64,000 nucleotides of DNA. It comes from Acidimicrobiaceae bacterium (GTDB lineage Bacteria; Actinomycetota; Acidimicrobiia; Acidimicrobiales; Aldehydirespiratoraceae). The notes under the pieces are model-generated. The model did not search any database and was not told the origin of the DNA. It worked only from the letters and a program-made list of their open reading frames with translations. The DNA is taken from contig JAPOUM010000001.1 of NCBI GenBank assembly GCA_026708645.1, positions 52,258-116,257 on the forward strand. The letters run 5' to 3'. The position numbers and the translations under genes are program-made. This document shows, piece after piece, positions 7,745-56,563 of this stretch (positions within the stretch are counted from its first letter, which is position 1; the number at the start of each line of letters is the position of its first letter).

Positions 7745-9273
<1,529 letters not shown>

Positions 9274-9349
9274 CGCACTCAACGATCAGTCTGCTGTTTG
9301 GCTGACTGAAGTTTGAGTGTCTCCCAGTTAGGGCACTCGCTGGGTTGTT

Positions 9350-9364
9350 CGTCTCTTCCGTTTT
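9350..9364 (+). other. 3' half of the 16S processing stem
   Basis: Reverse complement of 7483..7497. Confidence 0.8.
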
Positions 9365-9483
9365 GAGGGAGCAGTCAAACTGCTGCTTTCTGTGTGGTCG
9401 CGCTGGGCTTGAGCGCTGTCAGCGAATTAGCTGAATTAGCTGCCGTCAAGCTGCACCGGCCATTGATCGTTTCTTGAGAATTG

Positions 9484-9500
9484 CATAGCGAGCACGAGCA
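9484..9500 (+). other. 5' half of the 23S processing stem (pairs with 12641..12657)
   Basis: catagcgagcacgagca is the exact reverse complement of tgctcgtgctcgctatg downstream of 23S (17 bp). Confidence 0.8.
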
Positions 9501-9527
9501 TCTTTCGTAAGATGCAATGAATATGAA

Positions 9528-12618
<3,091 letters not shown>

Positions 12619-12640
12619 CATCTTCGCATCGCGCGTTCGG

Positions 12641-12657
12641 TGCTCGTGCTCGCTATG
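12641..12657 (+). other. 3' half of the 23S processing stem
   Basis: Reverse complement of 9484..9500. Confidence 0.8.
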
Positions 12658-12773
12658 GAGTTCATCAAGAGACGATCCGTCTCTGAAGTTCCTGGTTCGT
12701 CCAGGAACTCGCTTGCGTGAGCTTCGCCTCGAAGGTCCGGCCTCGGGGCGGCTCTCATGCGAGATGACAACAG

Positions 12774-12891
<118 letters not shown>

Positions 12892-12904
12892 TTTCGTTTG
12901 CTTG

Positions 12905-18415: not shown

Positions 18416-18649
18416 ATGAAGACCATGACTGAAGTAGGGGTGCGCGCACTCAAGCAGAACGCATCCGCCGTCGTGGCTAAGGCAGCGGCTGGCGAAGTGA
18501 TCACGATCACCAGCCGGGGGCGACCTGTGGCGTTGTTGACGCCGGTTCCCGAGTCACGCTTGCAGCAACTGCTCGATGCCGGGCTCGTGACAGAGCCTAC
18601 TCGCGATGTCACTGATCTGCCTGATCCGAAAATCGCAGCAGACGCTTGA
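18416..18649 (+). CDS. Phd/YefM-family type II antitoxin, apparently orphan
   Basis: GVRALKQNASAVVAKAAAGEVITITSRGRPVALLTPV is the typical Phd/YefM N-terminal fold. No intact toxin ORF follows. Confidence 0.8.
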   Translation: MKTMTEVGVRALKQNASAVVAKAAAGEVITITSRGRPVALLTPVPESRLQQLLDAGLVTEPTRDVTDLPDPKIAADA

Positions 18650-19054: not shown

Positions 19055-19423
19055 TCAGCGGATCTGGAGTATGCGTCCGCCCGATCCCCAGGCGGTGTCA
19101 GCCGTCAAGACTGTGGTGTCCAGGCGTTCGGCGAGAGCGAGACACAGCCGGTCGGCCAGCGAAAGGCCTTCCTGTCTCTTCCAGCGGTAGGCGGCCCACT
19201 CGGCGTCGGCTGCGGTTACCGGCTCGATCTTGAGATGATAGCTTGAAAGTAGAGATCTGGCGTAGCTCCAGTTGCCGCCAGCGGCGATCACCTTCTGAGC
19301 TGTCTCGCTCCAGTGGACGGCGCAGCACCTAGCGTCATCGAGCAGAGCCTGCTCCACCAGTTCGGCGCCGGGCTCGCTTTGCAGTCGGGCCAGCAGAGCG
19401 GACGCATCGAGCACGGTGGTCAT
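19055..19423 (-). CDS. vapC: PIN-domain toxin VapC
   Basis: N-terminal VLDASALLA and C-terminal acidic residues (LSLADRLCLALAERLDTTVLTADTAW). 4-bp overlap with the upstream antitoxin gene. Confidence 0.85.
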   Translation of the reverse strand: MTTVLDASALLARLQSEPGAELVEQALLDDARCCAVHWSETAQKVIAAGGNWSYARSLLSSYHLKIEPVTAADAEWAAYRWKRQEGLSLADRLCLALAERLDTTVLTADTAWGSGGRILQIR

Positions 19424-19668
19424 TTGGCGGATTCCTCGAGCGCTGCCGCCTTTCGGCGATCAGCACTCAGATCACCGACGAGGTCGAGCCCTTCGAGATC
19501 TTTGCGGACACGCTCGCTGAGTTGCTCGCGTGTGACTAGCAGCAGCCCTTCGGGTGCCTCGATCAGTACCAGCACCGTGCCCGGCTCAAGGTTGGAACGC
19601 GCCCGTATCTCCGCTGGGATGACCAGCCTACCACGATCTCCCATCACGACTTGATGAGTCCCATTCAC
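19420..19668 (-). CDS. vapB: AbrB/MazE/SpoVT-type antitoxin VapB
   Basis: GRLVIPAEIRARSNLEPGTVLVL is the swapped-hairpin AbrB motif. Overlaps the vapC start. Confidence 0.85.
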   Translation of the reverse strand: MNGTHQVVMGDRGRLVIPAEIRARSNLEPGTVLVLIEAPEGLLLVTREQLSERVRKDLEGLDLVGDLSADRRKAAALEESAK

Positions 19669-19753
19669 ACATCAACCATACCACATTGGTAGTCGAAATG
19701 TCGCAGCACCGTACCGTGATGCAAGCGGAGCCTCTATCTACAACGACAACAGG

Positions 19754-20305
19754 TCAATCGTCGGGTATCCAAGGCTCGAGGTCGATGCCGAGGCCGTCGG
19801 CGATGCGGTTGGCGTAGGCGTAATAGGCCGCCACTTCGACGATGTCGAGGATGTCGCGGTCGCTGAAACCAGCAGCGCGCAGCTCTTCGACGTCGCTGTC
19901 GCACATGTCGCTCGGCGTGCGGGTGAGCTTGACCGCGAAAGCCACCATGGTCCTGCGCTCGGGCGACAGAGGCGCAGTGGTCCAGTCCTGTTCGACGGCA
20001 GCGACCAATGCGTCGTCGTTGCTCAGACGGCGCAGACCGCGCCGATGATGAACGGTTCAATAATGGCAACCGTTCTCGAGGCTGACGACCAGCGCTATCA
20101 GCTCGCGTTCGACCTTGCGCAGCGTGTCTGTGCCGGCCATGGCCGACCGGTAGAGGCCCATGTGAGCCTTCATCGACGCAGGGTTCAGCGAATGAACGGC
20201 CAGCACATGGTCGACGCGTCCGTGGCGCCGATCGACGACCTGTGCATGGAGCTCGCCGAGCTCGTCGTCCCAAGACTCGTCGGGGATGACTTCGATACGC
20301 GCCAT
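19754..20305 (-). CDS. Carboxymuconolactone decarboxylase (CMD)/AhpD-like peroxidase-related protein with in-frame TGA (probable selenocysteine, C-H-Y-U motif)
   Basis: Track ORFs 20057..20305 and 19754..20008 are in the same frame and are separated only by the TGA at 20057..20059. The read-through product is ...LVVSLENGCHY-[TGA]-TVHHRRGLRRLSNDDALVAAVEQDW.... The stop therefore sits exactly where the second Cys of the family CxxC(xxxH) redox motif is expected. A hairpin follows 12 nt downstream. Confidence 0.75.
20028..20044 (-). promoter_or_regulatory. Candidate bacterial SECIS hairpin for the CMD-family gene
   Basis: mRNA sense CGGCGC-GGUCU-GCGCCG (6-bp GC stem, G/U-containing loop), starting 12 nt after the UGA. 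Confidence 0.55.
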
Positions 20306-20451
20306 GAACGCAGATTAGGCGAACGCCGGGTTCAGCGTCCACTGGCGTCTACCTACTGGTGCGGGGCATTTTTGCGTGATGGTGGATGCTGTCACCACGC
20401 CGGATCCACGTCTACCCGGCGTCTACTGCCTACCGCCCGGCGAAGCGGCAT

Positions 20452-21039
20452 CTACCGATCGATCACTTGCCTTAGGTCGGCTAAGCCGCGTGAGATGAGG
20501 CTCTTGACGGTGCCCTGGCGGATTCTCATGGCTTCAGCGATCTCGGCTTGGCTCATGTCCCCGTAGAAGCGCAGCACCAGCGCCGTCCTGCGACGCTCGT
20601 CGAGTTTGCCGAGCGCGTCGATCAGATAGTCGCTCTCGGGGGCCGGGTCGGGTCGTCTGCTGCGGAGGCCGACTCTGCGTCTCACTTCGCGTTTGCGCAG
20701 CTCGCTGCGGGCGCCGTTCACCACCGCGATCCGCAGATAGCCCTTCGGGTCGTCGATGCGGCGCCACCGCTCGTAGACCTTCACGAAAGCCTGCTGAACG
20801 ACTTCCTCGGCTGACTCCACCGTGTCGACCAGAGCTTGGGCCAATCGCACCATCGGACGGTAGTGCAAGGTGTAAAGGGCCTGGAAGTCGTCGCTCACGA
20901 ATGCTGTGAGTCTAGGTGACGCCCGCAGAGCGCCTGGATCGCCCGGACGCACAGACAAGGCGTCGGCAGCGTCGGCAGCGACATCGGTTGCGGGACTGTT
21001 GGCGGCATTGCCATGAGCGTGGAGTCTGGTTGCGGTCAT
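20452..21039 (-). CDS. ECF-type RNA polymerase sigma-70 family factor
   Basis: Region 2 (YRPMVRLAQALV...AEEVVQQAFVKVYERW) and region 4 HTH (LRFYGDMSQAEIAEAMRIRQGTVKSLISRG). Start chosen at MTATRL. The ORF extends to 21228 but that extension is AT-rich and non-coding-like. Confidence 0.8.
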   Translation of the reverse strand: MTATRLHAHGNAANSPATDVAADAADALSVRPGDPGALRASPRLTAFVSDDFQALYTLHYRPMVRLAQALVDTVESAEEVVQQAFVKVYERWRRIDDPKGYLRIAVVNGARSELRKREVRRRVGLRSRRPDPAPESDYLIDALGKLDERRRTALVLRFYGDMSQAEIAEAMRIRQGTVKSLISRGLADLRQVIDR

Positions 21040-21153
21040 CGCTCGGTAAAGACGCCTGAAGGCGCTGAACGGTTCCCAGAAATCCTGCACGCAGGGCGCG
21101 GATGCAGTGGCGCACGCCGTGTCAGCCCGCACCCGCGTTACTTCACGACGAAA

Positions 21154-21166
21154 CACTCTAAGAGTG
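21154..21166. promoter_or_regulatory. Perfect 13-nt palindrome CACTCTAAGAGTG in an AT-rich divergent intergenic region
   Basis: Seen directly. It lies in the unusually AT-rich stretch (about 21150-21235) between the sigma factor gene and the R-M fusion gene. Confidence 0.4.
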
Positions 21167-21325
21167 AGATATGATAGATTGCAGTGATGCTGGACAATAG
21201 TTACAGTGATGATAATAATTGATGACAATAATCACGGCGATGCTGGCTGCGACGCGACGAACGCTCGTCGATCCTTGAGCTGACTGAGGGAGCGCTTCCT
21301 GCCTGCCGAGACTTCCGTCGCTGAG

Positions 21326-24300
21326 TTGCTGGCGTCCGTGGAGGGCTTCGCCACGGCGGTGCGCGCTCGCGGGCGTGTCGGCGGATTCAACGAAGAGACG
21401 TTGACAGCCCCCGTTCGCGAATTGATCGAGGAGATCGCCGCATCCATGGGCATCAAAGGACTGCTGGTCGTCGACAAGGCGCCCGTGGTCGTCGGCGATG
21501 TCTCGCTGGGCGTCCCGGACATTTCCGCGTATCACCGTGGACTGCTACGTCTCGTGATCGAGCTGAAGTCTCCAGGCAGGGGCGCCGACCCGACGCGCTT
21601 CACGGGGCGCGAGCACAGTCAATGGCAGCGCTACAGCCAGCTGCCCAACGTCGTCTACACCGACGGCAACACGTGGACGCTTTGGAGGGCCGGCGACATC
21701 TGGGGTCCGGCACTTGAAATCTGCTCTGACCTCAACGACTTGAATGCTGCGGTGACGCCCGACCCGCAGGAGGTGCTGCGGTTCTTCGGCGACGTTCTCA
21801 GCTGGACGCCGCCGCGGGTCGTGTCCACTCATCAGCTCGCTGAACAAGTGGCCGGTCGCTGCCGCGCGCTCCGCAGCGACGTCAACGCCCTCCCCGAAGA
21901 AGTGCTGCGGGGACTGACGAGCGACTGGCGCGAGATGCTCTTCCCCGAGCTCGAGGACAAGCAGTTCGTTGACGCCTACACGCAGACGGTCGCGTTCGCA
22001 CTGCTGTCAGCCAGCGGACTCGGCATCGACTTGAGCATGAACCTCGACCCGGTGAAATATGACCGGCTCGGGCTGCTGCTGCACCATGCGGCTGAGAGCC
22101 TCGGCGCCGAGCGGGGCGTGCTCGGAAGGGCTCTGATGATGCTGACCGCTGATTCGCGGGTCCGTTCCGCCGCAGCGGCGTCGTTGGACGCGATGATCGC
22201 TCTCGCCGCGGCCGTGGACTGGGACAAAATGCGAGGCTCGGGCCACAGCGACGATTGGATGGACTTCTACGAGACGTTCCTCGACGCATACGACCCCGAG
22301 CTTCGCAAGCTCGCGGGCTCGTACTACACGCCCAAGCCAGTCGTCGAGTGGATGGCGGACTTCACCGATCGGATACTCGTGGAGCGGTTCGGCCTGGCAT
22401 CTGGCTACGGCAGCGACGACGTGACAGTCGTCGATCCGGCGCTCGGCACCGGAACGTATCTCGTCAGCATACTCGACCGGATTGCCGGCTCTGTGACCGC
22501 CAGCGTGGGCAGCGGCCATGCGGGCGCAGCGATCAACGCGGCCGTTTCTGAGCGGGTCATAGGGTTCGAGATCCAAGCCTGCCCCTACGCAGTGGCGCAG
22601 CTTCGCCTCGTGGAGACTCTCAAAGCGCGCGATCCGAAACTCCGGGTCGAGGAGCCGGCGGTCTACCTGACTGACACTCTCGCCGACCCGGATGCCAGCG
22701 CCGGGCAGCAGATGCTTTTCATGCGGGCGATCACCGAGTCACGGAAGAAGGCTGATCGGATCAAGCGGAAAACCCCCGTGACGGTCGTGATCGGCAACCC
22801 GCCGTACCTTGCCGGCGCGGGTCAGAGCAGCTGGGTGGCCAGGGAGCTCCTCGGCGACTGGCAGCCCGACACGGAGTGGGGCGTCGGCACCCATGCGAAG
22901 AACCTGTCGAACCTCTATGTGTATTTCTGGCGTTGGGCGGCATGGAAAGTGTTCGAGAACTCTCAGCAAGGCCCGCAAGACCAGGCTGGAATCGTGTCTT
23001 TCATAACTCCGACAGGCTGGCTCGACGGCGACGGCTTCCAGCAGATGAGGCGATGGCTGCGCGAATGGTCGAGTCACATATGGATACTCGATCTCTCGCC
23101 GGAGGGGCACCAAGCGCCGGCCAAGACCCAAGTGTTCAAAGCGATGCGCCAACCGGTGGCGGTCGTGACCGCCGTTCGAGCGCCCGAGCATGACGGCGCC
23201 TGCGAGGTCCGTTACCACCGGGTGCCCGCAGGCGAGCGTTCGGCGAAGTTCGCTCACATAGCGGACCTCACAGAACTGGAAGATACTCGTTGGCGGCTGC
23301 TTGCGCCGGACCCTCTCGGCGATCGCGGCTCTTTCACGCCCGCTGCCTCGTCGGCATGGCTGCAGATGCCCGCCGTCGACGATCTGCTGCCCTGGAACGC
23401 GAGCGGCATGATGGTCGGGCGCACATGGCCCGTCGCGCCGGACCGCGACACTCTTCAGGACAGGTATGCAGCCCTGCTCTCCCAGCCGAATGATTCAGAG
23501 ATGACGAGGCACCTCGACGAGCACAAGCGGGACCGCACCATCGATACCGAGCTCGTCGACAACCTCACGTCGGACTGCACGAGACCCGGCCCGCTCAGGC
23601 AGCGGCAGCCGCGCAGCGCGCCCGTCGTCGAATACGGCTATCGCAGCTTCGACCGCCACTACGTCATCCGCGACAAGCGGCTCATCAACCGGCCTAACCC
23701 GTCGCTGTGGGCCGCTCACGGCGATCAGCAGATATATCTCGCGGCGCCCGCGCTGGGCACCGCCAGCAGTCGTCCGAAGATCGCCGGATCTGGCGGCCAG
23801 ATAATCTCCTTCAGCGCACAGATCCCGGACATGCATTATCTGGCCGGTTCCAGGGCGGGGCGCATCCATCCGGTTTGGCTCGACTCGCAGTCCGCGACCC
23901 CGAACTGCGAGCCGGGTTTGTTGAGGTTGCTTTCTGAAAAGGCCGGACGCGAAGTGTCGGCGCTGGATGTGCCGGCCTACATCGCAGCCGTCGCTGCTCA
24001 CCCCGGCTTCACCGCGGTCTACCGCGACGATCTGCTCGACGCCAAGTCGATGCGGGTGCCGCTCACGGCGGACCCAGAACTTTTTGATCATGCGGCAGGC
24101 CTCGGCCGCCGGATCCTGTATCTGAGCACATTCGGGCAGCGTTGCCGGCCGCCTGAGGCGCCACCAGGCTGCCCGAGGGCGCCGGGCGGCCCGACCCTGG
24201 AAACCCCGATGCCTGCTAAGCCGGAAAGCCTCCGGCACGATCAGGCTGCACGCACCCTGACCATCGCGGGCCGCGGCATCGACGGTTCGCCGGCGAGCGG

Positions 24301-24664
24301 CATCGTGGCCAACGTAGCCGTCGAGGTTTTCGATTACAGCGTCTCCACGATGAACGTGCTGCAATCCTGGTTCGACTACCGCAAACACGAACCGTCCGGC
24401 AAGAAGGGCTCCCCGCTCGACTACATGGTCCCGGAAACCTGGCGAACCCGCTACACCGATGACCTGATCGACCTGCTGCACGTCCTGACTCTGCTAGTGG
24501 ACGCACGCCCCGAGCAGCGACGACTTCTCGACGAAATCAAGGCAGGGCCTCTCATCGGCCTAGACACCCTGAAAGCAGCCGGGGCGCTGCCGGGCGTCAA
24601 AGGAACGCGGGCCAAGCCTGCTGAGTTCGAGCCGGGCCGGCAGTCGCCGACTTTGGACGTCTGA
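21326..24664 (+). CDS. Single-polypeptide restriction-modification enzyme (Type IIG/IIL, MmeI-like; PD-ExK nuclease + gamma-class N6-adenine methyltransferase + C-terminal specificity domain)
   Basis: N-terminal PD...ExK (GVPDISAY...LRLVIELKSPG). SAM motif I VVDPALGTGTYL. Motif IV VVIGNPPYL. C-terminal region with YGYRSFDRHYVIRDKRL resembles type ISP/IIG specificity domains. No Walker A/helicase motifs seen. Confidence 0.75.
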   Translation: MLASVEGFATAVRARGRVGGFNEETLTAPVRELIEEIAASMGIKGLLVVDKAPVVVGDVSLGVPDISAYHRGLLRLVIELKSPGRGADPTRFTGREHSQWQRYSQLPNVVYTDGNTWTLWRAGDIWGPALEICSDLNDLNAAVTPDPQEVLRFFGDVLSWTPPRVVSTHQLAEQVAGRCRALRSDVNALPEEVLRGLTSDWREMLFPELEDKQFVDAYTQTVAFALLSASGLGIDLSMNLDPVKYDRLGLLLHHAAESLGAERGVLGRALMMLTADSRVRSAAAASLDAMIALAAAVDWDKMRGSGHSDDWMDFYETFLDAYDPELRKLAGSYYTPKPVVEWMADFTDRILVERFGLASGYGSDDVTVVDPALGTGTYLVSILDRIAGSVTASVGSGHAGAAINAAVSERVIGFEIQACPYAVAQLRLVETLKARDPKLRVEEPAVYLTDTLADPDASAGQQMLFMRAITESRKKADRIKRKTPVTVVIGNPPYLAGAGQSSWVARELLGDWQPDTEWGVGTHAKNLSNLYVYFWRWAAWKVFENSQQGPQDQAGIVSFITPTGWLDGDGFQQMRRWLREWSSHIWILDLSPEGHQAPAKTQVFKAMRQPVAVVTAVRAPEHDGACEVRYHRVPAGERSAKFAHIADLTELEDTRWRLLAPDPLGDRGSFTPAASSAWLQMPAVDDLLPWNASGMMVGRTWPVAPDRDTLQDRYAALLSQPNDSEMTRHLDEHKRDRTIDTELVDNLTSDCTRPGPLRQRQPRSAPVVEYGYRSFDRHYVIRDKRLINRPNPSLWAAHGDQQIYLAAPALGTASSRPKIAGSGGQIISFSAQIPDMHYLAGSRAGRIHPVWLDSQSATPNCEPGLLRLLSEKAGREVSALDVPAYIAAVAAHPGFTAVYRDDLLDAKSMRVPLTADPELFDHAAGLGRRILYLSTFGQRCRPPEAPPGCPRAPGGPTLETPMPAKPESLRHDQAARTLTIAGRGIDGSPASGIVANVAVEVFDYSVSTMNVLQSWFDYRKHEPSGKKGSPLDYMVPETWRTRYTDDLIDLLHVLTLLVDARPEQRRLLDEIKAGPLIGLDTLKAAGALPGVKGTRAKPAEFEPGRQSPTLDV

Positions 24665-24699: not shown

Positions 24700-28183
<3,484 letters not shown>

Positions 28184-29510: not shown

Positions 29511-30551
29511 TCAGTCGCTCAAGCGGATCCTGCCCGGGTCGGAGCTCTCGAAGGCTTCGCCGATCACGGCGGCCTCGTGACCGTCGAGGCGCAGTTCGGT
29601 CACCGCAGCCAGGGCCGCGTCGCGGCTGACCATGCCCAGCAGCAGACCCCCCGACGTCTGGGCGTCGGCCAGCAGCGTCACTTCGGCGTCGCTGACGCCG
29701 CCCCGGTCGAGATGCGGCGACACCCAGTCGAGATTGCGCTGAGAGCCGCCGGGGACCATCCCCGAGGCGGCTAGTTCGCGGGCGCCCGCGATGACAGGAA
29801 CCTGCCCGACCGCGATCTCCAGATCCACGCCGGATTCCTGCGCCAGGCGCCGTCCGTGGCCCAGCAGGCCGAAGCCGGTCACGTCGGTGGCGGCGGTGGC
29901 GCCGTGTCGCAGCCCCGCGGCGGCGGCTCTCTCGTTGGGTCGGATCATCTCGCGCGCGGCCAGTGCCAACACTTCATCGGGGGCCTCGCCGTGTTTGACG
30001 GCCGTCGAGATCACCCCCGAACCCAGCGGTTTCGTCAGCACCAGCGCGTTGCCGGGTCGCAGCCCGGCGTTGGTGAGCATGCGCTTGGGGTCGACCTCGC
30101 CCACGACCGCCATCCCGTACTTCGGTTCGGGGTCGTCCACGGTGTGGCCCCCGCCCACCACGAAGCCGCAGGCCCGGGCCGCGTCCTCCCCGCCGGCGAG
30201 CACTTCGCTGAGCAGGTCGCTGGACAGCTCCTGGGAGTTCCAAGCCACGAGATTCAAAGCCAGCAGCGGTTTCCCGCCCATGGCGTAGACGTCCGACACG
30301 GCGTTGGTCGCGGCTATCTGCCCCCAGAGGCGAGCGTCGTCGACCACGGGCGTGATGAAGTCGGCGGTCACCACCAGGGCGCGTCGCGGCGCGATCTGCC
30401 AGACCGCGGCGTCGTCGGAAGTGTCGAGGCCGACTAGCAGCTCCGGCGGGGGATCAGGGGTCAGGCCGCGCACGACGTGCGCGAGATCGCCCGCGGCGAT
30501 CTTGCAGCCTCAACCGGCGCCGTGGCTGAACTCGGTGAGCCTTCTGCCCAT
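29511..30551 (-). CDS. selD: Selenide, water dikinase (selenophosphate synthetase) with in-frame TGA (probable selenocysteine at the E. coli Cys17-equivalent position)
   Basis: The track ORF 29511..30473 lacks the N-terminus. Extending upstream in frame gives MGRRLTEFSHGAG-[TGA 30510..30512]-GCKIAAGDLAHVVRGLTPD.... This matches the SelD glycine-rich loop SHGAG(C/U)GCKI. The remainder is colinear with recalled E. coli SelD (DDAAV, IAATNAVSDVYAMGGKP, GGHTVDDPEPKYG, TDVTGFGLLGH, DAQTSGGLL). Confidence 0.85.
30484..30502 (-). promoter_or_regulatory. Candidate bacterial SECIS hairpin for selD
   Basis: mRNA sense AGAUCGCC-GCG-GGCGAUCU (8-bp perfect stem, or 7 bp with loop CGCGG), starting 7 nt after the UGA. 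Confidence 0.6.
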
Positions 30552-46714: not shown

Positions 46715-46876
46715 CGGAATCCCTCCCGCAGGTTGTGAATCGACCGCACACTAACACGAAGCGCGGCTTGCGGACCCGCCGGGCGGCGGTCGCTCAGCCG
46801 GCGGCAGACCCGGCGCCGGCGGCGAGCAGGAACTCCGGTGGTGAGTTCGTCGTCTCCATAGAGTAGCTTCGAGTCC

Positions 46877-47257
46877 ATGAATGTTCCAGACGGATTGCGT
46901 TACTCCGAAGACCACGAGTGGGCCGCCGCCGACGGCGGCGTCGTGCGCATCGGCATCACCGACTACGCCCAGGACGCTCTGGGCGATGTGGTCTATGTGG
47001 AGCTGCCCCAGGTGGGCGACCGTGTCGAGCAGGGCGAAGCCTTCGGCGAGGTCGAGTCGACCAAGTCGGTCTCTGAGTTGTTCGCGCCTGTGGGCGGCGT
47101 CGTCACCGAAGTCAACGACGAGCTCGGCGGGTCGCCGCAGAGGTTGAACGAGGATCCCTACGGCGACGGCTGGATCTGCACGGTGGCCTTCGATGAGGCC
47201 GCCGACCTGGACCGCCTGCTCGACGCCGACGGCTACAGGGGCCTGATAGAAGGGTAG
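46877..47257 (+). CDS. gcvH: Glycine cleavage system protein H
   Basis: Motifs HEWA, GITDYAQDALGDVVYVELP and the lipoyl-lysine motif VESTKSVSEL. Confidence 0.93.
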   Translation: MNVPDGLRYSEDHEWAAADGGVVRIGITDYAQDALGDVVYVELPQVGDRVEQGEAFGEVESTKSVSELFAPVGGVVTEVNDELGGSPQRLNEDPYGDGWICTVAFDEAADLDRLLDADGYRGLIEG

Positions 47258-50050: not shown

Positions 50051-50265
50051 AGTCTCACGAGTCCGTGCCGCGCCTCGATTCAGTGGCGCTGTTCGCTCAT
50101 CGCTGCTGAGCGGGCTTTCGCGGACCTGCGCGACACGCCGGTGAAGCCGTGGCTCGAGCGGCTCTCGACTTGGCAGCGAAATCCAGTGGGAATGCGAACG
50201 TCGCGGCGCGCGGATCCTCACTTGCCGCCGCTCGCTGTCAGAGCTGAGCGGTAGCTTTGCGCATT

Positions 50266-51393
50266 ATGAGCGATGATCTGAGGCAGTCTCCGCTGCGTCG
50301 AGCCCACGAGCAGGCCGGGGCCAGGCTGGTGCCATTCGGCGGCTGGGAAATGCCGCTGCAGTACCCGGGCGGCACCGTCGCCGAGCACATGGCCTGCCGC
50401 ACAGGCGCCGCCGTCTTCGACGTGTCGCATCTGGGGACGGTGCGGGTGCGAGGCGCCGGCGCGCACCGCGCCCTGCAGCGGGCGTTCACCAACGACCTGG
50501 ACCGTGTCGGGGTCGGATCGGCCCAGTACACGCATCTGCTGGATCCCGTCGACGCCTCCGTTCTCGACGACATCATCGTGTGGTGGCTCGGCGCAGACGT
50601 TTTCGAGGTGATGCCCAACGCGTCCAACACCGACCGGGTGGTCGCCGCGCTGCGCGACGGTGCTGACGAGCCCGACGCCGTGCCTGCACCGCCTGCGGGC
50701 GGTGGCGGCGCAGGCGGCGGTTTGGAGATCGCCGATGTGACAGCTGATCGGGCGGTGATCGCCGTTCAGGGCCCCGAAGCCAGGGATCGGGTGGCGGCCG
50801 CCGGCGGCGAGTCTGCGGCCTCGGTTGGGCGCTTCAAGGTGGCTGAGGCACGTTTCGGCGAGATCCCGGTCACGGTGGCGGGAACCGGCTACACCGGCGA
50901 GGACGGTGTCGAGATGTCGGTCGGCGTCGAGGACGCTGAGACGGTCTGGCGGCGGCTGCTCGAAGCCGAGGTCGTGCCGGCTGGGCTGGGAGCGCGCGAC
51001 ACGCTGCGTCTGGAGGCCGGACTGCCGCTGCACGGCCACGAACTCGGCGCCGGCATAACTCCGCTGCAAGCCGGCTTGGGCTGGGTGGTGCGCTGGGACA
51101 AAGGCGACTTCCGGGGCCGTGCCGCGCTCGCCGCCGAACGCGAGGCAGGCCCGCACCGGCGCCTGCGGGGTCTGCTGGCCGCCAAGGGCCGGCCGCCCCG
51201 CGACGGCTGCACGGTCCGGCGCGGCGGCGAGCCGGTCGGCGTCGTCACCAGCGGCAACTTCTCGCCGGTGCTGGGCCAGGGTATAGCGCTGGCGTTGCTG
51301 TCACCGGAGGTAGCTGTCGGCGACGAAGCAGTGATAGACGTGCGCGGACGCGACCTGCCCGCGAAGGTGGTCAAAACCCCCTTCCACCGCTGA
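50266..51393 (+). CDS. gcvT: Glycine cleavage system aminomethyltransferase T
   Basis: Motifs PLRRAHEQAGARLVPFGGWEMPLQY, AVFDVSHLG, TGYTGEDG, ARDTLRLEAGLPLHGHEL. Confidence 0.93.
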   Translation: MSDDLRQSPLRRAHEQAGARLVPFGGWEMPLQYPGGTVAEHMACRTGAAVFDVSHLGTVRVRGAGAHRALQRAFTNDLDRVGVGSAQYTHLLDPVDASVLDDIIVWWLGADVFEVMPNASNTDRVVAALRDGADEPDAVPAPPAGGGGAGGGLEIADVTADRAVIAVQGPEARDRVAAAGGESAASVGRFKVAEARFGEIPVTVAGTGYTGEDGVEMSVGVEDAETVWRRLLEAEVVPAGLGARDTLRLEAGLPLHGHELGAGITPLQAGLGWVVRWDKGDFRGRAALAAEREAGPHRRLRGLLAAKGRPPRDGCTVRRGGEPVGVVTSGNFSPVLGQGIALALLSPEVAVGDEAVIDVRGRDLPAKVVKTPFHR

Positions 51394-51992: not shown

Positions 51993-53117
51993 CTAGAATA
52001 GTGATGGTTGACTTGACGGACTTACTATACTAGAGATGTGGGCAGAGCTGCTCGGTGATTTTGCGGTGGTTTGATCGATATAGGGTGATGTGATCCGATC
52101 AACGCCGTGTTTGGGGCCGGCGACTACGACGTACTCCAGGTTTCGCAGGTGGGAGACTTCGCCTACGCGCTCGCCGTTAAGTGAATGTATGCCGATCTGA
52201 GCGCCCACATAGCGTTTGGAGTCGAATGCCAACGGACGGACAGCTTCGTAATCTGAACAAAAGTCTGTCAATTGATCCAGTGTCAGCCATGACTCATTGT
52301 TGTAGGAGAGTATCAGATACTCAGTGTTCAGAGATTTGATGGTCGATTCCAATGCTTGAGGCATGGATCGTTTTTGATTGAATAAGCTCTTGGTACTGTC
52401 ATCTTTGCAGTCGATTCTCTTGCAAGCGGTGCCGTAGTGTTGTGGGGAGTCCCAAGCGACGAGAGTCTCATATATGTGGTAGTTGCAGAAATAGCGGTGC
52501 TGGTTGTAGGGAGGGTCAAGATAAGCGAGATCGAAATCTCCGAGCTGGGACGCTAGTTTCATTGCATCTCCGCGAATGGTGACTCCGTCGCCGTGGATCA
52601 GTTCAGGGACTCTGAGTTCGAGATCCTTGAAGGACCTTTGTGCCCAAGACTTCAGGTATGCCATTTGCACAGCGGTAGTCGAGTCGACGCGGTCAGCGGC
52701 CAAGATCAAGCTTGTCAATAGGATTGGATAGAGCGTTGAGTCTTTGTAGTCGCTTTCGATAGCGTTGCGTATCGCATCAATGCGTCCACCATTGCGCGGC
52801 TGGAAGAATCGCGATTGCCGACAGAACGTTTCAGTGAAATAGCCCGGATCCGGCTTCAGATCCGACAGGCGACGGACAGCGTCGCGCAAATCAGACTGAT
52901 TGACCTGTGATGCACAAGTGGAGATCCAGCACTTGCTGAAGACTTCAGAGTATCGGGCGCTGTCGACTGCTGTCACATGAGCGCCTCGGGCTTTGAGGGC
53001 TTGGGCGACGCGGGTCGTTCCCGTGAAGAGGTCGAGGACTCGCTGGGCGCCGCTTCGCGAAACGAGGTCGACGAGCGTCGGAACCAAGCGCCGTTTCGAG
53101 CCGAGATATTTGATCAT
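51993..53117 (-). CDS. Site-specific DNA adenine methyltransferase (Dam-like, alpha-class/D12)
   Basis: N-terminal IKYLGSKRRL, SAM motif VLDLFTGTTRV, catalytic motif AYLDPPYN. The motif order (I before IV) is that of alpha-class N6A methyltransferases. Confidence 0.85.
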   Translation of the reverse strand: MIKYLGSKRRLVPTLVDLVSRSGAQRVLDLFTGTTRVAQALKARGAHVTAVDSARYSEVFSKCWISTCASQVNQSDLRDAVRRLSDLKPDPGYFTETFCRQSRFFQPRNGGRIDAIRNAIESDYKDSTLYPILLTSLILAADRVDSTTAVQMAYLKSWAQRSFKDLELRVPELIHGDGVTIRGDAMKLASQLGDFDLAYLDPPYNQHRYFCNYHIYETLVAWDSPQHYGTACKRIDCKDDSTKSLFNQKRSMPQALESTIKSLNTEYLILSYNNESWLTLDQLTDFCSDYEAVRPLAFDSKRYVGAQIGIHSLNGERVGEVSHLRNLEYVVVAGPKHGVDRITSPYIDQTTAKSPSSSAHISSIVSPSSQPSLF

Positions 53118-54712: not shown

Positions 54713-56071
54713 CTACAGTTCCAGCAGGGCTTGCTCCACCACCTCGGGCAGGGCGGGATGGATGTAGTACTGCCCGCGGGCCATCTGCTCGACGGTCAGG
54801 TCGAAATGCATTCCTTGCACGAGCTGCTGGATCAGCGTCGAGGCCTGAGGTCCGATGATGTGCGCGCCGAGCAGGCGGCGCGTCTCGGCGTCGGCGATCA
54901 CTTTGACGGCACTCTCGGTGTCCTCCATGGCCCAGCCGTAGGCGGCTGCTGCGAACGGTTGCACGTGGCTGCGGTAGCGCAGAGAGCGCTGCCGGCATTC
55001 CCGCTCGGTGAGGCCGACGCCGGCCACCTGGGGGTTGCCGAACACGGCGTGGGGGATGAAACGATGATCGACTCTGGCAGGGTCGTCGGCGTTGGTCAGA
55101 TTGTGGCGCACCACACGCGCCTCGTGGTTGGCGACGTGCTTGAGCTGCACCGGATTGGTCACGTCGCCGAGTGCCCACACGTTCTCGGCTGTGGTGCGGA
55201 GCTGGTCGTCGGTGACCACGTAACCGTCGGGGTCGGCGCCGATTCCGGCGGCGTCCAGGTCGAGCCGGTCTCCGTTGGGGACGCGGCCCGCAGCGACCAG
55301 CAGTTCGTCGGCTCGCAGCTCGTGCTCACCGGCAGAGTCCTCGACGCGCAGCACGATCTCGGCGCCTTCCCGTCGGACGGAGTGAACCCGTGTGTCGAAC
55401 CGCACATCGAAACGCCCGCGGTACGCCTCAGTGAAGCGGCGACGGATCTCGTCGTCCTCGCGGCGCAGGAAAGTGTCGCCTCGCAGCACGAAAGTCACAT
55501 GCGATCCGAAAGCGCCGAAAACCGAACCCAGCTCAGCTGCGATATAGCCGCCGCCCAAGATCACCAGCCGCTCGGGGAGGGCGTCGATGCGCATGATCGT
55601 GTCGGAGGTGTGGTAGCCGCAGTCGGCGAGCCCCGCGATGGCGGGGACGGCGGGCCGGGCGCCTGCCGCCACCACGATCCTGGAAGCGGTGACGACCTCG
55701 TCGCCGACCGCCACCCGGCGAAGCCCTGTGAATCGCGCCGAGTCGCGCAACACGGTCACGTTGGGCAGCCCCATTCGGTAGTCGAGCCCGCCGGCGGCGA
55801 TCGGGTCGATCCGTCCGAAGATCCGGTCGCGCACCGCGAGCCAGTCGGCGCCGCCGAAGCTGGTGCTCAGGCCGAGCCGTTCGGACTCGGCGGCCAGCGA
55901 AGCGATCTCCGCGGCGTAGACGAACATCTTGGAGGGGATGCAGCCCACGTTGAGGCAGGTGCCGCCGAACGAGCCGTGCTCGGCTATTGCGATGTCCCAG
56001 TCCTCGTGCTCGGGACCGATCACCGAGTTGCCCGAGCCCGCGCCGATGATCAGCAGATCGAAATGCCTCAT
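54713..56071 (-). CDS. mtr: Mycothione reductase-like pyridine nucleotide-disulfide oxidoreductase
   Basis: Motifs FDLLIIGAGSGNS and the redox-active disulfide GGTCLNVGCIPSK, with a C-terminal dimerisation domain containing HP. Assignment to Mtr rather than other family members rests on recalled similarity. Confidence 0.75.
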   Translation of the reverse strand: MRHFDLLIIGAGSGNSVIGPEHEDWDIAIAEHGSFGGTCLNVGCIPSKMFVYAAEIASLAAESERLGLSTSFGGADWLAVRDRIFGRIDPIAAGGLDYRMGLPNVTVLRDSARFTGLRRVAVGDEVVTASRIVVAAGARPAVPAIAGLADCGYHTSDTIMRIDALPERLVILGGGYIAAELGSVFGAFGSHVTFVLRGDTFLRREDDEIRRRFTEAYRGRFDVRFDTRVHSVRREGAEIVLRVEDSAGEHELRADELLVAAGRVPNGDRLDLDAAGIGADPDGYVVTDDQLRTTAENVWALGDVTNPVQLKHVANHEARVVRHNLTNADDPARVDHRFIPHAVFGNPQVAGVGLTERECRQRSLRYRSHVQPFAAAAYGWAMEDTESAVKVIADAETRRLLGAHIIGPQASTLIQQLVQGMHFDLTVEQMARGQYYIHPALPEVVEQALLEL

Positions 56072-56172
56072 CAGGCAGGTCACAATAGCTGTCGATAGCC
56101 GCCGGAGGCGCGGCTCTGCGCGCCTGTCGCTGATCGGCGGCAATGTTCTTGGCGATGATCTTGTCTCGGTTG

Positions 56173-56563
56173 TGGAGCTGGGGAGAATCGAACTCCCGTC
56201 CGTCAGGCGGACACCGGGATCGCTACGACCATTCCCGAGAGTCGCAGCTTGCGGCTGCCGCCACGCCGGGTCGTGTGGATCCCAGGGGATCCCGCCGCCG
56301 GATCTTTCTCCGATGTCAGCGGTCTTTGCCTGCCGTCAGCGGGTCTCTCCCCGCCGTCCACCGCTGCTTCTGGTGCCAGGCTGCAGCGGTCAGGCCCCGC
56401 GTGCCATTGCTGGTCGCGATGATTCTTGCAGCTAGATCAGATCAGGCTGCGAGAACGAGATCGTCGTTTTCGGCGTCTCTGGGGGTGCCCTGTTTAAGGA
56501 GTCTGAGCAACTCCGGTCGCACTCCGCGGCTTCCTAGTCCCGACGTCGAAACCGGTCAGCCCC
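56173..56563 (-). ncRNA. ssrA: tmRNA (SsrA); tag reading frame encodes AENDDLVLAA
   Basis: Minus-strand 5' end is GGGGCTGACCGGTTTCGACG. The 3' tRNA-like end is GGACGGGAGTTCGATTCTCCCCAGCTCCA, with a G3:U pair in the acceptor stem. Resume codon GCC at 56472-74 and stop at 56442-44. CCA is not encoded (the next bases are CAA). Confidence 0.93.

Follow-up and report, generated by a model that had tools for sequence, protein, structure and literature searches.

Does the in-frame TGA at codon 83 of a small AhpD-like gene end the protein, or is it read as selenocysteine (Sec)? The gene (19754..20305, minus strand) lies in a stretch of 64,000 nucleotides of an Acidimicrobiaceae bacterium, positions 52,258 to 116,257 of contig JAPOUM010000001.1 (assembly GCA_026708645.1), which was analysed as a whole and is called the window below. 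An earlier note made from the letters alone had proposed that it is a probable second selenoprotein in its neighbourhood. Family membership, conservation of the TGA and selection on a downstream hairpin all support this proposal, and UGA83 very probably encodes selenocysteine.

On the minus strand the frame runs from an ATG at 20305 to a terminator TGA at 19756..19754 and holds 183 sense codons including codon 83, the TGA at 20059..20057, which is its sole interruption. The two open reading frames from which the gene had been joined (20057..20305 and 19754..20008) do lie in exactly one frame and are parted by this single TGA; the read-through product, ...LVVSLENG-C80-H-Y-*83-T-V-H-H87-RRGLRRL..., agrees with the SLENGCHY-U-TVHHRRGL reported in the earlier note. 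The coding sequence is complete as judged by translation, by Pfam and NCBIfam, and by tblastn over residues 1-182 in 80 related loci, and it is present in a single copy in the window. The Sec codon (20057..20059) occupies the second position of a C-x-x-C/U redox motif. The first position is the TGC codon of Cys80 (20066..20068), presumed to be the resolving thiol. The codon of Glu68 (20102..20104), part of an 'RE' conserved in the alignments, lies 12 residues ahead of Cys80, just as the proton-relay Glu does in AhpD, and the conserved His, H87, follows at Sec83 +4.

Profile searches were run on the translation with a Cys put in for the internal stop. The protein was matched by the NCBIfam model TIGR01926 'peroxidase-related enzyme' with 144.9 bits (cutoff 81.8) over residues 17-174 of 183, and by Pfam CMD (PF02627) with 57.3 bits (gathering score 23), so that both models behind the original CMD/TIGR01926 family call were passed. 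The CMD match denotes membership at the domain level only and gives no indication of carboxymuconolactone decarboxylase activity. Three further models failed, namely TIGR00777 for AhpD proper (24.1 bits, cutoff 191.95), NF041238 AhpD_rel_CFYUT (50.4 bits against 175, covering only the C-terminal part of its 357-position profile) and the YciW-related NF053654 (21 bits against 310). In the PDB the matches are Mlr4105 (3c1l, E = 7e-30), 2pfx, Deinococcus radiodurans DR1765 (6k40), 2oyo and 2prr, with E values between 1e-18 and 7e-30 over about 150 residues and about 30-35% identity. Their CxxC is aligned to C80/U83, and the downstream His is conserved, as is the Glu in 3c1l, 2pfx and 6k40; these Cys-type proteins differ from the window protein in carrying Cys and having no selenocysteine insertion sequence (SECIS). 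Orthologues of the Cys form have TGC at the codon 83 position. The alignments with orthologues, Cys forms and PDB entries (3c1l, 2pfx and 6k40 among them) thus place the TGA at the second Cys of CxxCxxxH, where the earlier note had expected it.

The spacing of Glu68, Cys80, Tyr82, Sec83 and His87 reproduces that of the AhpD proton relay, whose residues are Glu118, Cys130, His132, Cys133 and His137 in Mycobacterium tuberculosis AhpD and Glu36, Cys48, Tyr50, Cys51 and His55 in PA0269 (PMC3141380). As the spacing is identical in both, the TGA stands for the second Cys of CxxC, and the residue replaced by Sec83 corresponds by position to Cys133 of the M. tuberculosis protein. The TIGR00777 alignment, which lays residues 49-98 of the query onto profile positions 99-148, is in keeping with this. 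In M. tuberculosis AhpD it is reportedly Cys133, in work of Koshkin and co-workers from 2003, that makes the attack on AhpC. With that protein, a lipoamide-dependent AhpC reductase, the window protein has in common the CMD/AhpD helical domain, the Glu at -12, the C-x-x-C/U motif and the His at +4, with Sec at the place of Cys133; it differs in having Tyr in place of His132 (as does PA0269) and in the absence of an adjacent ahpC. It shares the AhpD catalytic relay but, given its low TIGR00777 score, is not an orthologue of M. tuberculosis AhpD.

Relatives were searched for in one genome per GTDB species, which yielded 561 of them, and the comparative counts given here are from the best 80 of these 561 loci. 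The 80 loci contain 82 gene copies, all from metagenome-assembled genomes (MAGs) of Acidimicrobiia representing about 80 species-level genomes; many belong to Ca. Aldehydirespirator, Poriferisodalis and Spongiisocius, and many are sponge-derived. The tblastn matches span residues 1-182 straight across the internal stop, at 65-80% nucleotide identity to the window gene. The TGA in C-H-Y-TGA is kept in 82/82 copies, and so is Cys80. Relative to the window gene, codons 2-82 have a median dN/dS (nonsynonymous over synonymous substitution rates) of 0.18 and codons 84-183 one of 0.25, showing purifying selection on both halves. The Sec-type orthologues that were to be looked for according to the earlier note are thus present in all 80 loci, and its argument that the TGA is no random nonsense mutation is upheld by the constraint on the two sides.

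The terminator of the AhpD-like gene is itself TGA, here and in 65 of the 82 orthologues. TGA is therefore not a sense codon in the code of this organism, and its recoding must be site-specific. Two further metagenome homologues with the TGA (L087:272-829 and L088:306-941, proteins P0004 and P0002) had been given Trp for this codon in the gene calls of the Joint Genome Institute (JGI), as under code 4/25, and the call in L088 ran past the true TGA terminator into unrelated sequence. The Trp in these two proteins is a gene-calling artefact of a selenoprotein and represents no real Trp codon.

At the Sec codon two other close homologues carry TGG (Trp; L086:449-1006) and TTA (Leu; L085:3001-3549), with the downstream hairpin retained; in L085 both arms of the stem are changed (CGUCGC/GCGACG) and pairing is preserved. 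Both, as proteins P0001 (TGG) and P0003 (TTA), are true substitutions in the deposited DNA; they may represent steps on the way to losing Sec, changes that the protein tolerates, or errors of sequencing.

More than 100 clusters (at 90% identity) of fragments of about 100 residues, from MAGs of Acidimicrobiia and Actinomycetota (P0012-P0120), came up in the protein search, with a few full-length Cys forms among the matches. The fragment clusters all start with 'M[TVA]HHRRG', one codon past the TGA site, and several are named 'peroxidase-related enzyme' in NCBI. Their common start shows that gene callers split the AhpD-like gene at the TGA.

The hairpin follows the TGA after a spacer of 12 nt (20045..20056, ACCGUUCAUCAU, encoding T84-V85-H86-H87), which is free of indels and of fixed length in the 82 copies. 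RNAfold returned the structure that had been described, CGGCGC-GGUCU-GCGCCG (20028..20044), with a 6-bp stem made of the 5' arm CGGCGC (20044..20039) and the 3' arm GCGCCG (20033..20028), and a 5-nt loop GGUCU (20038..20034). Counted from the U of UGA the loop is nt 22-26, with G23 and U24. An extension of the structure by a lower stem (nt 6-9/40-43 and 12-14/35-37) was not conserved in the orthologues and was for this reason dropped from the SECIS model.

Codon entropy was determined for the 64 columns of the alignment having at least 90% amino-acid conservation and a codon choice of at least four-fold, for which the median was 1.24 bits. The four lowest values of the 64 belong to codons 88-91, all inside the hairpin: codon 88 (Arg) is CGG in 82/82 copies with an entropy of 0 bits, codon 89 (Arg) is CGC in 75/77 (0.20 bits), codon 90 (Gly) is GGT in 82/82 (0 bits) and codon 91 (Leu) is CTG in 82/82 (0 bits). 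In the rest of these genes Gly is encoded by GGT at only 13% of its positions, Arg by CGG at 29% and Leu by CTG at 43%. The loop GGUCU is unchanged in 82/82 copies, and canonical pairing at the six positions of the stem is found in 78-81 of the 82; the commonest change in the stem, C30 to U in 11 copies, turns the G-C of pair 18-30 into G-U. Three independent orthologues of the Cys form, which have the same HHRRGLRR peptide, vary at the hairpin codons (CGT, CGG, GGC), consistent, for these three Cys forms, with a constraint that may have been relaxed after loss of the UGA. The codon pattern shows the hairpin to be under selection at the RNA level. The hairpin argument of the earlier note thus gains a stem-loop just 3' of the UGA, a small apical loop with G and frozen synonymous sites.

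The loop and its register are those of the SECIS of E. coli fdhF, in which GGUCU occupies the same nt 22-26, as confirmed under the fdhF annotation in 5419/5426 genomes. Within the window only the TGA of the AhpD-like gene has a GGTCT in a stem at that distance. Both elements encode Gly-Leu in the loop, have a short GC-rich stem and lie within the coding sequence. In contrast to fdhF the hairpin described here has no bulged U17 and a perfect 6-bp CGGCGC/GCGCCG stem, and its binding by SelB is only predicted.

A gene for selenide, water dikinase, selD (29511..30551, minus strand; TIGR00476, 329.4 bits), is located 10.4 kb from the AhpD-like gene and is itself of the Sec type. Its in-frame TGA at 30512..30510 is codon 14 within the catalytic motif MGRRLTEFSHGAG-U-GCKIA (SHGAG-U-GCK), and it is followed by an 8-bp hairpin with a fold z of -2.4. 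The other TGA-for-Cys gene with a hairpin that had been noted nearby is therefore selD, with GAG-U-GCK. As the listed selD open reading frame begins past the TGA, automatic annotation would clip its N-terminus. A scan of metagenome SelD proteins, all at most 66% identical, showed TGA at the catalytic site in all of the closest relatives (L090-L101) and in 36 of 78 relatives overall. The Sec-type selD is supporting evidence for Sec decoding in the source genome. The confirmation of the Sec machinery suggested in the earlier note was achieved in part, selD being present with TGA at its catalytic site, and selA, selB and tRNA-Sec not lying within the 64 kb. In another order of Acidimicrobiia all Actinomarina genomes are reported, in a 2026 preprint, to have selA, selB, selC and selD, with a Sec-type SelD (bioRxiv 10.64898/2026.04.03.716425).

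Several observations weigh against Sec at codon 83. Genes selA and selB were not found by Pfam and NCBIfam on about 45 open reading frames of the window, nor in the 80 orthologous loci; tRNA-Sec was not found by ARAGORN in the window and the 80 loci or by Rfam in the window. The same methods found clusters of selA, selB and tRNA-Sec only by Cys-type selD genes of distant organisms, so that detection works and the negative result means merely that the genes are not in these 64 kb. The energy of the hairpin is unexceptional for a sequence of 66% GC when compared to dinucleotide shuffles (z = -0.94, 29/200 shuffles as stable); the E. coli fdhF SECIS has a z of -1.33 by the same folding test. As stability is not significant the case is made on comparative evidence instead, the conservation of the TGA, of the loop and of three hairpin codons at synonymous sites lying far outside chance. 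Among the Sec forms no double compensatory changes occur, only G-C to G-U, in a stem that is nearly invariant. The RRGLRR peptide is conserved in the Cys forms too, and this partly forces a palindromic coding sequence; the Cys-form DNAs available for comparison at the hairpin are only three independent ones. No Rfam model matches the hairpin, either at gathering thresholds over the whole window or at E <= 10 on 19700..20400. Finally, the presumed substrate and reductant of the protein are extrapolated from distant relatives.

An explanation that makes use of part of these points is that UGA83 is read through without selenium, either under code 4/25 or by near-cognate suppression by tRNA-Trp or tRNA-Cys. 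The TGG and TTA homologues suggest that a residue other than Sec may be tolerated, two JGI calls have Trp for the TGA, and neither the window nor the orthologous loci showed selA, selB or selC. Against it, TGA terminates the window gene and 65/82 orthologues at a conserved C-terminus, and a reading of L088 in the style of code 4 overruns the true stop into unrelated sequence. Homologues, moreover, have a catalytic Cys at this position, selection acts on the SECIS-type hairpin next to it with its fdhF loop, and a selD with TGA at the catalytic position is in the same window. We regard read-through without selenium as improbable.

Still less probable is a locus made up of two proteins, an N-terminal one of 82 residues and a re-initiated C-terminal one of about 100 residues, which would associate. 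Many orthologues have indeed been called from a start one codon past the TGA, and codon 84 is GTG in 30 of the 82 copies. It is ACC in the window, however, and GTC, ATC, GTT, ATT, ACC, ATA, GTA and ACG together account for 52/82, so that a potential start at this codon (GTG) in only 30/82 copies argues against re-initiation. The cut would also pass through the active-site helix with CxxC/U-xxx-H, and the invariant GGUCU loop and the alignment of TGA with Cys would be left unexplained.

The weakest explanation, a pseudogene in which a TGC-to-TGA nonsense mutation struck a Cys-type AhpD-like gene next to an incidental hairpin, fits the 'peroxidase-related enzyme' fragments of about 100 residues in public annotation and a hairpin energy that on its own is no better than chance, but is effectively refuted by a TGA kept in 82/82 copies from about 80 species-level genomes at 65-80% nucleotide identity, by the low dN/dS on its two sides and by the frozen synonymous sites of the hairpin, none of which would be seen in a decaying gene.

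Selenocysteine at codon 83 thus being the preferred reading, we infer from the observed gene structure, family membership, UGA conservation and hairpin selection how selenium incorporation, its dependence on SelB, the substrate and the reductant might be arranged. The product would be an AhpD-like thiol/selenol oxidoreductase of 183 residues, of the TIGR01926 subfamily and with the CMD/AhpD fold. The 17-nt hairpin would act as a bacterial SECIS whose 6-bp GC stem displays GGUCU with G23 and U24; bound to this element, SelB with GTP and Sec-tRNA(Sec) would bring Sec to the ribosome with UGA in the A site, and the neighbouring SelD would supply the selenophosphate for Sec synthesis. In the enzyme the Sec83 selenolate, activated by the Glu68/His87 relay, may attack a peroxide or the oxidised Cys of a partner peroxiredoxin. 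Resolution by Cys80 would then give a selenenylsulfide, with a thiol or lipoyl donor as its possible reductant.

Chemistry of this kind, as a peroxide reductase or as an adaptor, seems reasonably probable by analogy with relatives. A role in peroxide defence is suggested by the family name and the solved relatives, by a mutant of DR1765 and by the adjacency of katG in 5/80 loci. Loss of DR1765 in D. radiodurans leads to H2O2 sensitivity, and the CxxC cysteines matter (PMC8945050).

The Sargasso Sea survey reported AhpD-like proteins with CxxU among its new selenoproteins, with 27 sequences under COG2128 (PMC1088965). In the Global Ocean Sampling (GOS) survey 'AhpD-like 1' was the fourth most abundant selenoprotein family, with 299 sequences (PMC2398784), and a 2026 review of prokaryotic selenoproteins names the 'AhpD-like protein, TIGR01926, CxxU' (PMC13188914). 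The statement in the earlier note that AhpD-like selenoproteins are known from such surveys was therefore correct. The likeness of the window gene to this family is one of features: a TIGR01926 score above the cutoff, a CxxU motif in which Sec takes the place of the second Cys, no more than one Sec, a SECIS directly 3' of it whose small apical loop contains G, and widespread Cys homologues. It differs by its clade, mostly sponge-associated Acidimicrobiia, and by public records that consist only of fragments of about 100 residues; its motif has the specific form C-H-Y-U, and its GGUCU loop does not vary. NF041238 AhpD_rel_CFYUT and the YciW-related NF053654 are likewise AhpD-related with a motif of the C-x-Y-U-T type, but they differ in architecture (NF041238 has about 357 residues) and their scores are far under the cutoffs.

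As far as sequence can tell, the gene appears to have every testable defining feature of the TIGR01926 CxxU selenoprotein family, and it is an added member of a documented family. It holds little scientific surprise, since the literature already covers its family, its CxxU motif and its type of SECIS. The use of the finding is mainly in annotation, the more than 100 public clusters of fragments being C-terminal halves of the AhpD-like selenoprotein; once the Sec codon is recognised, a whole redox enzyme is recovered. The finding further indicates that selenium is used by this clade of Acidimicrobiia, in at least SelD and the AhpD-like protein with TGA at catalytic positions. Of modest interest are the strict conservation of an fdhF-like loop over about 80 species and the multi-copy genes in mostly sponge-associated Acidimicrobiia.

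A wider proposal can be put forward only tentatively and is rather doubtful as a whole: that AhpD-like selenoproteins have expanded throughout a lineage of mostly sponge-associated Acidimicrobiia, often to several copies, with loop and register of the SECIS as in E. coli fdhF. If true, the E. coli-type recognition code of SelB and SECIS would be common to Actinomycetota, the genes might yield selenoproteins in E. coli with no need to engineer the SECIS, and in symbionts the family might take part in KatG-linked peroxide defence as a selenium-dependent partner.

Regarding gene copies, at least two Sec-type AhpD-like genes, in some cases within a few kb of each other, are found in several Acidimicrobiia MAGs: L059 (at about 2848 and 6850), L030/L033 (on one contig, 12 kb apart), L008/L009 and L004/L029.

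The surroundings of the gene are variable. Synteny of the window neighbours (sigma factor, KatG, SelD, POR, methyltransferase and toxin-antitoxin) was not conserved in the 80 loci, with the exception of the sigma factor in L001 and of katG in five loci. In these five (L016, L019, L026, L047 and L051) katG is directly upstream on the same strand, with about 80 nt between its end and the start of the AhpD-like gene. The window katG (24700..26913, minus strand) is about 4.4 kb from the AhpD-like gene, with methyltransferase and sigma-factor genes between them, an arrangement that points to a former katG/AhpD-like pair split by an insertion. The methyltransferase is a Type ISP-like restriction-modification enzyme of 1112 residues (21326..24664, plus strand; Type_ISP_C, N6_Mtase, Eco57I). 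The sigma factor is an extracytoplasmic function (ECF) type sigma-70 gene with regions 2 and 4 (20452..21228, minus strand), 147 nt upstream of the AhpD-like gene and on the same strand; this adjacency is common only to the closest relative, L001, and a sigma factor is also near the Cys-form gene in L082. A PIN toxin with MazE/AbrB-like antitoxin and a Phd/YefM antitoxin flank the AhpD-like gene (19055..19668, minus strand; 18416..18649, plus strand). None of these flanking genes of the defence or mobile type is conserved beside orthologues.

Further off in the window are a complete rRNA operon with 16S, 23S and 5S genes (7745..12892, plus strand) and a tmRNA gene with the tag AENDDLVLAA (56170..56563, minus strand). 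M. tuberculosis AhpD is reduced by lipoyl proteins. Genes for the glycine-cleavage H protein, a lipoyl carrier (46862..47257), the glycine-cleavage T protein (50248..51393) and a pyridine-nucleotide disulfide oxidoreductase, probably dihydrolipoyl dehydrogenase (54713..56335), are present 27-36 kb from the AhpD-like gene, a distance at which no linkage is implied. A KatG identical to that of the window over all 737 residues is encoded in L170 (GCA_026710015.1, JAPORX010000109.1), a locus from a sponge-derived MAG series, with the same neighbours, an acyl-CoA dehydrogenase and the Type ISP gene.

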